DNA of 6,242 bases from a virus: positions 1 through 6,242 of the IMG/VR virus record IMGVR_UViG_3300008450_002950. One strand, 5' to 3'. This document shows, in pieces, positions 1 to 5,471 of this stretch. The position numbers and the translations under genes were made by a program. Positions within the stretch are counted from its first letter, which is position 1, and each line of letters starts with the position of its first letter. The notes under the pieces were generated by a model. That model was not told the origin of the DNA. It was given only the letters and a program-made list of their open reading frames with translations, and searched no databases.

Positions 1-114
1 AAGTCATCATGGCTTTAAGAATTATAGAGGGGGCAATATCGCCTAAAAGTAAGCCGGGGAGCTGTTGGCAAGTAGGCCATCACCACCTCCTGTATACAAT
101 ATTTAGGGTACCGT

Positions 115-147
115 AGTTAGGCTAGTTAAGTCAGTTAAGCAGTTAGG
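115..147. repeat. Four tandem degenerate heptamers AGTTARG (iteron-like), spaced 9, 9 and 8 nt apart
   Basis: Read directly: AGTTAGG 115-121, AGTTAAG 124-130, AGTTAAG 133-139, AGTTAGG 141-147. Related copies are AGTTACC at 220-226 and TAGTTAAGG at 661-669, on the other side of the HxlR gene. The region is non-coding, with no ORF of useful length. Confidence 0.7.
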
Positions 148-158
148 AGGCGGGGGTA

Positions 159-169
159 TAGTTTAACTA
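159..169. promoter_or_regulatory. 11-bp palindrome TAGTTTAACTA, candidate operator half-site pair
   Basis: TAGTT (159-163) and AACTA (165-169) are reverse complements around T164. A near-identical perfect palindrome, AGTTTAAACT, occurs at 774-783. Confidence 0.4.
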
Positions 170-172
170 GAA

Positions 173-188
173 AGTACCCGGGGGTACT
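173..188. repeat. Near-perfect 16-bp inverted repeat AGTACCCGGGGGTACT
   Basis: AGTACC (173-178) is the reverse complement of GGTACT (183-188), with a CGGG centre. It belongs to a cluster of GTAC-core motifs: GGGTACC 106-112, GGTACT 183-188, 202-207 and 241-246. Confidence 0.65.
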
Positions 189-211
189 ATTTACTGTATT
201 AGGTACTATTT
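183..211. repeat. Direct repeat GGTACTATTT, two copies 19 nt apart
   Basis: Identical 10-mers at 183-192 and 202-211. CTGTAT hexamers also recur at 90-95, 194-199 and 251-256, and TGTATACA at 91-98 is a perfect 8-bp palindrome. Confidence 0.65.
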
Positions 212-280
212 GGTCACTTAGTTACCTGAAAGTAATCATGGGTACTCTGTCTGTATAAGATTACCTTGGGTCCGTTCTAA

Positions 281-616
281 ATGATAACCAAGGAAATACA
301 TGATATAATAAAATTTAAAAGATCTATCCTGCACAATAAGTGGGGCATAGAGTGTATTATTACCCTTGGAGACGGGGATCCCCTTAGATTTAATGAGATC
401 CATGATAACCTACCCGGCTGCTCAGCCAAAGTATTAACCCAGGCATTAAAGAAGCTAGAAGCCCAGCATTTACTAGTTAGAACGTCTTATAACGAGATAC
501 CCCCAAGAGTTACCTACAAACTGTCTAATAACGGACTCTTAGTTCTTAAGTATGTAGAGGACTCTATACAGTTTTTTCGTGAGGCATTTATGCTCTACAA
601 TAAGTATGAAATTTAG
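281..616 (+). CDS. HxlR-family winged-helix transcriptional regulator
   Basis: 111-aa ORF. The stretch KWGIECIITLGDGDPLRFNEIHDNLPGCSAKVLTQALKKLEAQHLLVRTSYNEIPPRVTYKLSNNG matches the remembered HxlR/DUF24 signature (KW..I..L..G..RFnEl...lpgiS.kvLtq.Lk.Le..gl..R..y.e.PPRVeY.Lt..G). Confidence 0.85.
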   Translation: MITKEIHDIIKFKRSILHNKWGIECIITLGDGDPLRFNEIHDNLPGCSAKVLTQALKKLEAQHLLVRTSYNEIPPRVTYKLSNNGLLVLKYVEDSIQFFREAFMLYNKYEI

Positions 617-773
617 TGATTCACCAACTTCTACATTATTTGTTACTAAACGGTAACTTGTAGTTAAGGCACTGCACAAACTAAACCACCTCTTACTGCG
701 TTATCTTTGTCGCTTTTTCACATCTGTTGAAAAGTCAGTAACTAATATGTAGAACTATGAAGTAAATTTGGAG

Positions 774-783
774 AGTTTAAACT
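774..783. promoter_or_regulatory. Perfect 10-bp palindrome AGTTTAAACT upstream of ORF 827, candidate operator
   Basis: AGTTTAAACT is its own reverse complement. It sits 3 nt downstream of TAAATTTG (763-770), which fits the Bacteroidota -7 promoter consensus TAnnTTTG. No correctly spaced -33 TTG was found, so the promoter call itself is weak. Confidence 0.35.
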
Positions 784-826
784 TTTTAGGTATATTATAG
801 TGTAGACCTAATCAAAAACCGACCTT

Positions 827-2857: not shown

Positions 2858-3237
2858 TTCCGCATGATTCTATACAACTAGAAGTGGTTCATTCAATCTA
2901 CAAGACCAAGACTATCTATCAAAAGATGGAAGGCGGGGATTTATTTCCAGAAAAGAAAGAAGTTCTTGTCAAACAGATTAAGGTAAAGAAATGGTTTAAG
3001 AAAGAATGTATTAGTTCTATAGAAGAGTACGTCAATAGTAAAAATAAGATTAGCAAACACAGATCCGTAGTGTTTGACAAATTCTCTGGAAGGTTCTACG
3101 CAACTTTTCATAGTCCTCAAGAAGTACTTCAAGCAATATCTACAACCCCTATGAATAACCCAATTGGATTCACCCATGATAATAACATTCACCCCTCAAC
3201 ATCACAAGTACAGCAGCATAGAACCAGACGATATTGA
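2854..3237 (+). CDS. Hypothetical protein (127 aa from TTG 2854, or 103 aa from ATG 2926)
   Basis: ORF on the same strand with lysine-rich composition similar to its neighbours. TTG at 2854 overlaps the upstream TGA (TTGA). No family was recognised. The 3' end overlaps the nuclease gene. Confidence 0.5.
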   Translation: MIPHDSIQLEVVHSIYKTKTIYQKMEGGDLFPEKKEVLVKQIKVKKWFKKECISSIEEYVNSKNKISKHRSVVFDKFSGRFYATFHSPQEVLQAISTTPMNNPIGFTHDNNIHPSTSQVQQHRTRRY

Positions 3238-4009
3238 CTGGTTAAGTGTAACGTCTTTTATATCAAACTTTAAACAGCCTCTTGAAGCAGATAAGATAGC
3301 AGAAAAATCAAGTAAGAGTAAAAAATCAAAGTGGTATGGTATGACTCCTGAGGCAATCAAGGATGCCTGGAAGTCAGAAGCAAACAGAGCCACAAGTCTT
3401 GGTACCTGGTATCACAACTGCAGAGAAAAAGATATATGTGAAGTAGAATCCATGGAACGCCATGGTGTAGTTATACCTGTTATAAAACCCATAGAAAAAG
3501 ACGGAGTTAAGTATTCTCCAAACCAGAAGCTTTCTAGTGGAGTCTATCCCGAGCATATGGTTTATTTAAAGTCTGCTGGTATTTGTGGCCAGTCAGATCT
3601 AGTAGAAGTGGTCAATGGAGAAGTACATATTACAGACTACAAGACCAATAAAGAAATTAAAGTAGAAGGATACACAAACTGGGAAGGCATAACACAAAAA
3701 ATGTTTCCTCCTGTTAGCCATCTTGATGATTGTAATCTTAATCACTACGCTTTACAGCTTAGTACTTACATGTTTATGATACTAAAGCATAATCCAAAAT
3801 TAAAGTTTGGAAGCTTGACAATACATCACATCATGTTTGAAGAAGTTGATAAAGATAAGTTTGGTAATCCCATAACTGCTCTTGACAGTAATGGTGATCC
3901 CATAGTAAAAGATATTGTACAGTATGATCTGCCTTATTTAAAACAAGAAGTTATTTCACTACTGCATTGGTTAGAAGATAATCGTCACAAGTTAAAAGCT
4001 AAACAATGA
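3176..4009 (+). CDS. PD-(D/E)xK nuclease, RecB/Cas4-like exonuclease family
   Basis: The ordered motifs are HHKY...SVTSF (N-terminal), GTWYH, GQSDLVEV (motif II Asp), HITDYKT (D-x-K, motif III) and YALQLSTY (QhxxY). Together these are the RecB-family nuclease signature. ATG at 3176 is preferred over the track's TTG at 3164. There is no Cas4-type C-terminal Cys cluster. Confidence 0.75.
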   Translation: MIITFTPQHHKYSSIEPDDIDWLSVTSFISNFKQPLEADKIAEKSSKSKKSKWYGMTPEAIKDAWKSEANRATSLGTWYHNCREKDICEVESMERHGVVIPVIKPIEKDGVKYSPNQKLSSGVYPEHMVYLKSAGICGQSDLVEVVNGEVHITDYKTNKEIKVEGYTNWEGITQKMFPPVSHLDDCNLNHYALQLSTYMFMILKHNPKLKFGSLTIHHIMFEEVDKDKFGNPITALDSNGDPIVKDIVQYDLPYLKQEVISLLHWLEDNRHKLKAKQ

Positions 4010-4224
4010 TTGTACAAACCATCCATGAAATACTTAATCCTTTTGATGTAGAAGTTCGTGAGCTTGGTCATGGTGTGGCTTTGTTTATGATAGCAGGGTC
4101 AATACATAGCAATCCTCAGTTTATTGTACGCTTTTATCACACGGGAGAACTAAGAACAGTAGACCAAAATGATATAAAGGTTTACGGAAATCCAACAGCA
4201 GGAGAAAATTTAATACCACAATGA
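4006..4224 (+). CDS. Hypothetical protein (72 aa)
   Basis: The ORF is coupled to the nuclease gene by an ATGA overlap (4006-4009). No family was recognised. Confidence 0.55.
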   Translation: MIVQTIHEILNPFDVEVRELGHGVALFMIAGSIHSNPQFIVRFYHTGELRTVDQNDIKVYGNPTAGENLIPQ

Positions 4225-4301
4225 AAAAGTTTATAAAGTTTTTAAAATGGCTAGAAGAATACCGGCTTGAACTTATGACAAGAGCAGGTAGACCCTGGTA
4301 A
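4221..4301 (+). CDS. Possible 26-aa micro-ORF (MKKFIKFLKWLEEYRLELMTRAGRPW)
   Basis: Not in the supplied ORF track because it is too short. Its ATG at 4221 overlaps the upstream TGA (ATGA), the same coupling used elsewhere in the window. It fills an otherwise unexplained 87-nt gap and ends with TAA at 4299-4301, 10 nt before the next ATG. The peptide is amphipathic-helix-like. Confidence 0.25.
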   Translation: MKKFIKFLKWLEEYRLELMTRAGRPW

Positions 4302-4311
4302 ATAAAATATT

Positions 4312-4824
4312 ATGATAAGATTATTTGATATACAGAACGGAAAGGTAACAGCAAGTGAACACTGCTATACTCTTAAGTTTCTTAAAAATATTATGGACTC
4401 ATATCCAGATGAACATTTGCGGATATATGCGTATCTGTTTTACATGACCTGCCCTAACCCTGATCTAAACCCCTTCTTTGATGTACCCGAAGCTGAGAAA
4501 GAAGAGATTATTCTTCAAGAGATTGATGCTGACTTTTCCACTGATGATGACCTTATTGTCGTTGGTCTTAGAATGTGTGAGAAACTATACCAAACTCCCA
4601 CGTACAGAGCGTACATGGGTATTAAGACAATGTTGGATAGGCTTGCGAAGTATATGGAGACCACGGAGATTGAGCACGGTAGAGACGGTAACATTACAGC
4701 ACTTGTTAATGCAGCCGCGAAGTTTGAGGCTATCCGGCAAAGTTTTAAAGGTACGCTACGAGATCTGGAAGAAGAGCAGCAGTCTCAAGTAAGAGGAGGA
4801 CAAAACTTAGCATACGACCAATGA
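4312..4824 (+). CDS. Hypothetical phage protein (170 aa)
   Basis: Long ORF with an acidic centre and a Gln/Glu-rich C-terminus, coupled by ATGA to the next gene. No family was recognised with confidence. A small-terminase role is possible from its position upstream of the TerL-like gene, but nothing in the sequence supports it. Confidence 0.65.
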   Translation: MIRLFDIQNGKVTASEHCYTLKFLKNIMDSYPDEHLRIYAYLFYMTCPNPDLNPFFDVPEAEKEEIILQEIDADFSTDDDLIVVGLRMCEKLYQTPTYRAYMGIKTMLDRLAKYMETTEIEHGRDGNITALVNAAAKFEAIRQSFKGTLRDLEEEQQSQVRGGQNLAYDQ

Positions 4825-5471
4825 CAATAGTATCTATAAGAGAATATAATAAAAGAATAGAGTCTGTTCTTTCTGACTCATATAAAGTTGTACTAACCGA
4901 TGAGGAGTATAACTATAGAAAAGAATATTCTGTAGACTGGTCAGATAAAAAACGAGACGCAGGTCCTCAGTACATTATTGATGACAACTACTTAGAGAAA
5001 AGAAGTACTAATGGGCACATGGGGCAAAGAGCTGTAGAGAAGTTTTTAGGTATAGAATTTACAGATCCTGATACTTCATATGATATAAAAAAGAATATCC
5101 CTGATTTATTACCTGCAGGATTACATATTGGAGTAAAGACGCATAGAGTAGCTAATCCTCCAATGCTTGATTTTATACCGGATCAAGTATATGAGAAGCT
5201 TGATCCTGTAAAACAAAAGAAAGCTCGTTATCCTCAGATTATTGTAACAAAGGATAATAACTGTGAAAAGACCTTTTATATACTTGGTGTTTATGCTCCT
5301 AAAGTTCTTTGGCATAAAGACTATGTAGATAAAGGTCTGATATATGATGATAAACTTTTAGAGAAGGGAACTAAGATTCCTTTTATTGGTGTACATAAAC
5401 GTGTACCATTTAAAAACAAGGAAGAACTAGTTTCTATCATAGGTCCTACATGGACTTCTACTGTAAGGTGA
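4821..5471 (+). CDS. Hypothetical protein (216 aa), possibly a degenerate PD-(D/E)xK-like fold
   Basis: Long ORF. GHMGQRAVEKFLG ... IPDLLPAGLHIGVKT ... QIIVT ... FYILGV resembles the G..GE.A...yLg / D / (D/E)-V-K-T layout of restriction-endonuclease-like phage proteins, but has Gly where the second acidic residue is expected. The fold call is low confidence. The TGA stop (5469-5471) lies inside the next tRNA gene. Confidence 0.65.
   Translation: MTIVSIREYNKRIESVLSDSYKVVLTDEEYNYRKEYSVDWSDKKRDAGPQYIIDDNYLEKRSTNGHMGQRAVEKFLGIEFTDPDTSYDIKKNIPDLLPAGLHIGVKTHRVANPPMLDFIPDQVYEKLDPVKQKKARYPQIIVTKDNNCEKTFYILGVYAPKVLWHKDYVDKGLIYDDKLLEKGTKIPFIGVHKRVPFKNKEELVSIIGPTWTSTVR

Follow-up and report, generated by a model that had tools for sequence, protein, structure and literature searches.

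What purpose is served by the dense array of short repeats and palindromes that lies ahead of an HxlR-family regulator gene in the IMG/VR virus record IMGVR_UViG_3300008450_002950? An initial annotation had marked bases 90-270 of this array as a candidate replication origin, operator, packaging site or structured non-coding RNA (ncRNA). The window analysed here is the whole viral contig of 6,242 bp, and our comparison drew on about 100 related phage contigs. From this comparison we propose, with roughly even confidence, that bases 11-280 form a divergent non-coding control region, a double-stranded protein-binding platform built in three layers: a module of phased G-tracts, a set of tandem heptamers and a cassette carrying the HxlR gene. 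The annotated interval 90-270 straddles these three layers, which are of different age.

Results

A conserved divergent intergenic region

Because a leftward gene starts at position 10 and the HxlR gene at position 281, bases 11-280 constitute a divergent intergenic region. The leftward gene leaves the contig, and its full 80-aa protein is encoded in the relative L105 (open reading frame (ORF) 427-669). The suggestion that 3-116 might simply be the 3' end of an upstream gene was not borne out, the plus-strand frame at 3-116 not being conserved in the closest relative, L001. On the other side, the gene adjoining the region matches PF01638 (E=5.1e-18; 65 bits versus a Pfam cut-off of 20.8). Relatives that carry the HxlR gene, on contigs of up to 122-127 kb, show a constant gene order with minus-strand genes to the left and plus-strand genes to the right.

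Protein searches, DNA pattern searches and look-ups of the encoding contigs yielded 17 distinct versions of the sequence upstream of HxlR homologues whose proteins are 64-100% identical; these versions represent essentially one lineage. Conservation across them is block-wise, with conserved blocks split by variable stretches, and a survey of about 170 kb of related sequence placed each conserved block only once per contig. A region that is conserved, single-copy and non-coding agrees with the protein-binding platform predicted from sequence rather than with unconserved spacer. For comparison with HxlR-less relatives we turned to the PD-(D/E)XK exonuclease gene of the window (3164-4009), which has at least 597 relatives in IMG/VR; the best 80 fetched are 70-92% identical, and 79 fetched exonuclease loci were compared. 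Finally, a pattern search with the promoter block of the rightward operon afforded 85 distinct upstream regions.

A phased G-tract module

The most conserved feature of the region had not been listed in the initial annotation. It consists of two pairs of G-runs, A1 and A2 (29-33 and 56-59) and B1 and B2 (152-156 and 180-184), at a spacing of about 28 nt, and the left pair falls just outside 90-270. Plus-strand runs of at least four G spaced 26-29 nt are present in all 17 versions from the HxlR lineage. Approximately 40-45 of the 85 upstream regions contain the module. The spacing of successive G-runs has a sharp peak at 27-29 nt, and loops within pairs measure 21-24 nt. Furthermore, about 20 HxlR-less relatives among the 79 exonuclease loci show the same layout in their divergent region: A1/A2, a C-box (GGyCATCACnnCCTCTAAyAy), B1/B2 in AT-rich DNA and, after 9-60 nt, TAAATTTGnnAAGTTTAAAC...GTATATTATA. 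In all, about 40 relatives without HxlR share this arrangement. Read on the minus strand, the C-box is GGAGGTGGTGATGG, an inverted G-box, and A1 is often followed by a C-rich stretch in relatives.

Run length varies from 4 to 10 G even between near-identical relatives (L144 versus L153, L114 versus L123, and L112), as expected from replication slippage, while the loop stays at 21-24 nt. Long G-runs are otherwise scarce in these genomes: a 53-kb contig contains 14 G5/C5 runs, 4 of which fall in this region, and complete relatives of 120-131 kb contain 1-4 G6 positions per genome, two of the four in G007 being pair B.

Roughly 19 nt separate A1 from the leftward gene start in the window, and overall the distance is only 2-33 nt; the promoter of that gene must therefore lie inside the module. 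On the other side, B2 of HxlR-less relatives precedes the conserved rightward promoter by about 35-60 nt. We propose that the module, 29-184, would be the ancestral first layer of the platform and would serve as a regulatory or initiation region for divergent early transcription units. More broadly, it may act as an early promoter region, as an origin or as something new.

Repeats of the annotated interval

The individual repeats described for 90-270 are present as claimed. They comprise AGTTARG heptamers with a period of 8-9 nt, GGTAC at 107, 183, 202 and 241 with AGTACC at 173, the 10-nt direct repeat GGTACTATTT at 183 and 202, CTGTAT at 90, 194 and 251, the palindromes TGTATACA at 91 and TAGTTTAACTA at 159, the 16-bp inverted repeat at 173-188, and CCACCTCC at 83 with GGAGGCGG at 146, where 83-91 and 145-153 are complementary. 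Enrichment in G+C likewise held up, with fractions of 0.41-0.46 in windows over 1-250 versus about 0.31-0.39 in most windows of 200-850, a flank in which the value climbs to 0.43 inside the HxlR ORF.

The assertion that this repeat density is beyond chance was upheld for direct repeats but not for inverted repeats and palindromes. Compared with 2,000 dinucleotide shuffles of 90-270, the interval contains 25 extra 6-mer copies (11.2 ± 3.8 in shuffled sequence) and has 95 bases under repeated 7-mers (32 ± 18 in shuffled sequence), neither value being reached in any of the 2,000 shuffles. Indeed, no other 181-nt window of the contig has as many bases under repeated 6-mers as 91-271. In contrast, a fraction of 0.17-0.40 of shuffles equalled or exceeded the observed inverted repeats. 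Across relatives, neither the palindromes nor the pairing of 83-90 with 146-153 is conserved, and the perfect palindrome at 173-188 is limited to the window and L001.

The heptamers proved to be a lineage-specific expansion that is absent from some HxlR-carrying relatives. Copies number about 2-4 in the clade of the window and two (TAGTTAAGTCAGTTAAG) in L002, L114 and L122, and there are none in L003, L116 and L110. They would form the second layer of the platform, a slippage-type tandem expansion at 115-147 that arose in the variable spacer of the module in some lineages only. The sequence GTACCNGGGGG is essentially confined to the control region, and a search of viral contigs with a triple AGTTARG pattern gave 83 mostly unrelated matches and was uninformative.

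Two apparent translation signals were rejected. The mini-ORF ATG GGT ACT CTG TCT GTA TAA (238-258) has a variable start codon, which is ATT, ATA or ATG-TGA in relatives. AGGAGG on the minus strand at 85-90 was considered as a ribosome-binding site; no gene of the window has one, and the ATG that follows it (80..78, minus strand) leads only into short frames, which are not the same in L001 as in the window.

The HxlR cassette and its candidate operators

HxlR-less modules adjoin a promoter of the form TAAATTTG...AGTTTAAAC, and in the window the same block sits past the HxlR gene. We suggest that the third layer is an HxlR cassette, spanning approximately 185-725, which would have been inserted between the module and the rightward promoter. 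The best-conserved block of the region, 237-267, is single-copy per contig and occurs only with the HxlR gene; none of the 79 exonuclease loci has it. A multi-copy phage promoter of the T7 type was rejected on the basis of this single copy. The block holds a -10-like TATAAG (254-259), 21 nt before the ATG, and is proposed as a putative, non-canonical promoter of the HxlR gene. An 18-mer from this core block also found chance matches in three unrelated contigs, namely L089 and L091, where it lies at a coding start, and L092.

Between module and promoter block lie two dyads. TTAC-N6-GTAA has exactly two sites in the window, at 222 and 643, which flank the HxlR gene. The association extends to distant regulators: 8 of the 79 exonuclease loci contain a distant HxlR-like gene (34-49% identity), and in five of the eight a near-perfect TTACC-N4-GGT(T/A)A dyad lies at -104 to -122 in upstream sequence that is otherwise unrelated. 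In 2.1 Mb of DNA from related phages, dyads of the class T[TA]AC[CT]-N4-[GA]GT[TA]A have a background frequency of 0.031 per kb, while the sequences upstream of the eight distant genes contain 5 in 1.55 kb, or 3.2 per kb, an approximately 100-fold enrichment (Poisson P=2e-9). Several of these dyads are followed by a further half-site of the TTAGTTACC type, as at 218-226 of the window.

The dyads also bear on the older module. Flanks of the form ACC...GGT surround 24 of 88 G-runs (27%) in the HxlR lineage versus 5 of 148 (3%) in HxlR-less relatives, and would turn the G-runs of that lineage into similar dyads, for example AGTACC-CGGG-GGTACT at 173-188; this correlation is suggestive only, since the HxlR lineage is essentially one clade. 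Overall, the prediction of an operator array for the adjacent regulator survives in part. A dyad close to the HxlR gene (222-235) recurs at 643-656 and before distant HxlR-like genes, but the array as a whole is not simply an HxlR operator set, because the G-tract module underlying GGTAC/AGTACC exists without an HxlR gene. In the mechanism that we envisage, an HxlR dimer would regulate its own gene by binding dyads of the TTACC-N4-GGTAA type at 222-235 and 203-216, which closely precede the -10-like TATAAG of that gene. The dimer would also occupy 643-656, in front of the next promoter, and probably B2 (173-188) by way of the gained ACC...GGT flanks, which would place the older module under control of the regulator.

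Operators of the HxlR/DUF24 family provide a precedent. HypR of Bacillus subtilis binds a 16-bp (7-2-7) inverted repeat, GTATCAAAATTGATAC, which is also found at its own promoter (hypO and hypR; PMC3351151). The phage locus resembles this arrangement in having an adjacent PF01638 gene and a candidate 14-16 bp dyad by the gene's own promoter that is repeated at a second promoter. It differs in that the phage half-sites are TTACC and GGTAA, that several sites overlie G-tracts and that the phage operators are predicted from sequence. In the thiol-switch subgroup an N-terminal cysteine senses redox state (Cys6 of YodB, Cys14 of HypR; PMC3351151). The translated phage protein has no cysteine before residue 25 and is therefore probably not a thiol switch of the YodB/HypR type, a feature that bears on this subgroup and not on membership in the HxlR/DUF24 family.

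Table 1. Features of the control region and its surroundings (positions in the window; a dot marks features without assigned strand).
Feature	Position	Strand	Remarks
Leftward gene start (ATG 10..8, product MMTLH...)	1..10	-	Reverse complement of 1-12 is CCATGATGACTT
G-tract A1 (GGGGG), first of left pair	29..33	+	Present in 36/36 modules with both pairs
G-tract A2 (GGGG), 27 nt after A1	56..59	+	A1-A2 start-to-start 24-30 nt in 36 relatives
C-box GGCCATCACCACCTCCTGTATACAAT, conserved module centre	75..100	+	Alignments; single copy by nhmmer
Tandem AGTTARG heptamers (115, 124, 133, 141) in the A2-B1 spacer	115..147	+	Lineage-specific expansion
G-tract B1 (GGGGG), first of right pair	152..156	+	About 28 nt before B2
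G-tract B2 (180-184) inside inverted repeat AGTACC-CGGG-GGTACT	173..188	.	Proposed secondary HxlR operator
Degenerate dyad 1 (GTACT-ATTT-GGTCA)	203..216	.	GAACC-N4-GGTTA at -72 in relatives
Dyad 2 (TTACC-TGAA-AGTAA), proposed main HxlR operator	222..235	.	TTACC-TGCT-GGTAA at -53 in relatives
Best-conserved block CATGGGTACTCTGTCTGTATAAGATTACCTT	237..267	+	Near-invariant in 17 versions, HxlR proteins 64-100% identical
HxlR-family winged-helix regulator gene, 111 aa	281..616	+	PF01638, phrog_11195
Second dyad copy (TTAC-TAAACG-GTAA), past the HxlR stop codon	643..656	.	ACTAAACrGTAA conserved in relatives
Host-type promoter block TAAATTTGGAGAGTTTAAACTTTTTAGGTATATTATAG of the rightward operon	763..800	+	Conserved and ancestral; 9-60 nt after B2 in HxlR-less relatives

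Promoter types on the two sides

In the rightward block, a TAnnTTTG -7 box is conserved at 763-770, and the combination of TAnnTTTG with the AGTTTAAAC block is single-copy in relatives of 53-131 kb. The intergenic stretch 617-826 that surrounds it is highly conserved and includes GTTTAGTTCCTCACC, ACTAAACrGTAAC, TGTTGAAAAGT, TAAATTTGGAGAGTTTAAAC and GTATATTAT. On the leftward side, a minus-strand box lies between A1 and A2 in a few HxlR-less relatives.

A possible nucleic-acid structure

Four same-strand tracts of 4-10 G, the typical number, raise the possibility that the region acts not through protein sites on duplex DNA but as a nucleic-acid structure. This could be a structured leader, an ncRNA or, on the G-rich strand, a switch made by a hairpin or by a G-quadruplex with long loops. 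In its favour, only the runs and the loop lengths are conserved; in addition, a complementary C-run often follows A1, A2 can pair with the C-box, and some of the pairings require G-T wobbles that are possible on the plus strand only. A conserved RNA fold is nevertheless absent: RNAalifold gave a structure conservation index (SCI) of 0.04-0.23 for all sub-regions and both strands of the 17-sequence alignment, and Rfam returned no match at E<=1 in the window or at E<=0.1 in the intergenic regions of relatives. These results render the annotated structured ncRNA unlikely. Moreover, loops between paired G-runs have no excess of hairpins (mean z of -0.57 and -0.03), complementarity beyond the G/C core is inconsistent, and no promoter is placed to transcribe the G-rich strand. 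Stable intramolecular G-quadruplexes combine four G-tracts with short loops of roughly 1-12 nt; the module has loops of 21-24, 34-102 and 21-24 nt, which are far longer. We consider a structural role of this type very unlikely.

A possible replication origin

The module could alternatively be the phage replication origin, with phased G-tract pairs serving as iteron-like initiator sites or as G-rich elements that form R-loops or primers, and with the HxlR operators merely lying beside it. We judge this unlikely, although several properties of the locus are in its favour. The element is single-copy, sits where the two main gene blocks diverge and is devoid of a canonical host promoter, its repeats share one orientation and a fixed inner spacing of about two helical turns, its B1-B2 loops are AT-rich in relatives, and a local minimum of the cumulative GC skew lies nearby. 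As evidence for an origin, the skew is confounded by gene orientation: its sign changes at the module, but it follows gene orientation everywhere, and the block-wise slopes in the complete relative G008 do not fit a replication component centred at the module.

Iteron-type origins contain at least three direct repeats of a 17-22 bp unit in approximately two-turn phase, and those of lambda (ori) and plasmid Rep systems share with the module same-orientation repeats in a single-copy non-coding region that is partly AT-rich in relatives. The repeats of the module, however, have only the homopolymer run in common and not a 17-22 bp sequence, and they are spaced 27-29 nt rather than about 22 bp apart. 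No adjacent initiator gene (Rep- or O-like) is present, nor does 1-300 contain a DnaA box, TTATCCACA, with up to 1 mismatch. Priming from a G-rich R-loop is disfavoured by the position of the G-runs on the template strand of the leftward transcript and by the lack of a rightward promoter upstream.

Mosaic boundary and possible genome ends

A mosaic boundary lies within the module. The window and L001 are identical from about position 75 rightwards and unrelated leftwards, placing the boundary at about 60-78, just left of the C-box. L105 and L144 share the left flank of the window, and L120 combines the left flank of L001 with a diverged right side. The conserved module seems to be a joint at which leftward genes are exchanged by recombination. 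Of the related contigs, about a tenth start in the module or no more than approximately 150 nt from it (L258, L267, L280, L303, L337 and the window), a hotspot of contig breaks that is probably caused by this strain mosaicism.

The same breaks could be read as the signature of a packaging (pac/cos) site or a physical genome terminus, especially as the window contig itself begins 28 nt before A1, the region is single-copy, directional and rich in repeats, and the gene for the terminase large subunit (TerL) belongs to the same rightward block (5856 onwards). We regard this as highly improbable. About 12 genes and two tRNAs separate the region from the TerL gene, at a distance of 5.6 kb, and mosaicism located exactly at this position best explains the breaks. 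Furthermore, L105 runs through the left end of the window, other long contigs span the module, and the module is internal in one complete relative, G008, a circular assembly.

Genome and gene setting

The window derives from a phage of about 120-130 kb that is distantly related to crAss-like phages, widespread, uncultured and found in freshwater. With at least 597 exonuclease relatives in IMG/VR, it falls in a very abundant uncultured group (approximately 120-131 kb), of which lake metagenomes hold hundreds of contigs. Neither the window nor 1-700 matched known phage records by megablast and blastn, and a scan of bacterial and archaeal genomes for the core block, which would have revealed a prophage or host copy, was empty. 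Among cultured phages, the terminase comes closest to crAss-like, Flavobacterium and Cellulophaga phages (about 25% identity), and none of the genes in the window has a Shine-Dalgarno sequence; on these grounds the likely host belongs to the Bacteroidota. Besides the regulator and exonuclease (phrog_298) genes, the window encodes GNAT and HU-like proteins, two tRNA-like sequences and the start of the large terminase (phrog_6681). G008 is 128 kb long with an overlap of about 125 nt between its ends, and in it the module heads a leftward block of about 83 kb and a rightward block of 25 kb.

Giant minus-strand ORFs of 4,512 and 5,424 aa occur in the complete relatives G007 (70884-84422; L213/L214) and G008 (67232-83506; L220/L221), respectively. 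Each has one DFDxD motif about three quarters along and resembles the virion RNA polymerases of crAss-like phages, and a 1,201-aa piece around the motif had no sequence match in PDB or PHROG. To the left of the module, the Rfam model for GOLLD RNA gave strong sub-threshold matches on the minus strand of L001 (3261-3656) and L005 (2497-2898), at a distance of about 2.4-3.5 kb, which scored 89 and 104 bits where the gathering threshold is 150 (E of about 1e-21 to 3.5e-26). L001 has about 2 kb without a long ORF (3190-4330 and 4560-5400), and a third relative, L002, contains a tmRNA gene (31-545, minus strand; 79 bits). A second G-box site at 33.5 kb of G001 was inspected and is not similar to the module. 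The minus strand of this contig at 33,300-33,900 (within L125) is non-coding, with one more AAGTACCGGGGGTCCCC and a terminator-like hairpin, GCCGGTACGTCAAGCCGGCTCTTTTT, and is possibly a small RNA gene.

Discussion

Several observations weigh against a platform of duplex protein sites. All 17 versions of the region lack the Bacteroidota -7 box TAnnTTTG on both strands, and the promoters proposed within 11-280 are for this reason non-canonical and putative. Conservation of the module is restricted to the G-runs and their spacing and excludes the flanks, which is unusual for sites of sequence-specific proteins. All four G-tracts lie on one strand, an arrangement more readily expected of a process that is directional or confined to a single strand than of a symmetric pair of divergent promoters, and one that hints at such a process. 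As for the regulator, both proximal dyads of the window are degenerate (AGTAA for GGTAA; GTACT/GGTCA), and the correlation between flanks and HxlR, coming from one lineage, is not phylogenetically independent.

These features leave room for a bolder and rather doubtful interpretation. The G-tracts and C-box might be a previously undescribed single-copy, strand-specific genome element of abundant freshwater phages distantly related to crAss-like phages. It could be the place where an RNA polymerase delivered by the virion enters or starts, or else a G-tract-dependent switch, in the form of an R-loop or a quadruplex with long loops, by which early transcription would be coupled to replication, and in the lineage of the window it would have come secondarily under an acquired HxlR repressor.

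As a layered divergent control region, the locus invites comparison with known systems. The OR and OL regions of lambda are divergent early control regions in which multiple operators lie between back-to-back promoters at a spacing of 23-24 bp. Similarly, the phage locus is a single intergenic region that heads two divergent units and contains several spaced sites beside a small regulator that is probably autoregulated. Unlike lambda, it lacks a lysogeny module, its promoters depart from the host consensus, its sites are spaced 27-29 bp apart and an older G-tract module is present in addition.

A second comparison concerns transcription. In the crAss-like phage phi14:2, no motif of a host-type promoter is recognisable at the early genes, which the virion RNA polymerase transcribes; promoters of that type serve other genes of the phage (bioRxiv 10.1101/2020.03.07.982082). 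The phages studied here resemble phi14:2 in their predicted Bacteroidota host, a distantly related terminase and the giant DFDxD ORF of complete relatives, and the contrast between 11-280, without host-type promoters, and 763-800, with one, matches the two promoter classes. In contrast, the giant ORF has no sequence-level match to gp66, no G-tract module has been described for phi14:2, and the genomes here measure 120-131 kb.

Overall, the locus would provide an example of a regulator cassette inserted into, and wired onto, an older control region, and the dyads yield a concrete operator, TTACC-N4-GGTAA, as a prediction for this phage-borne family of HxlR regulators. The phased G-tract module is a conserved single-copy element in AT-rich genomes from which G-runs are otherwise almost absent. 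Together with the adjacent promoter block, it offers landmarks by which these genomes may be oriented and compared.

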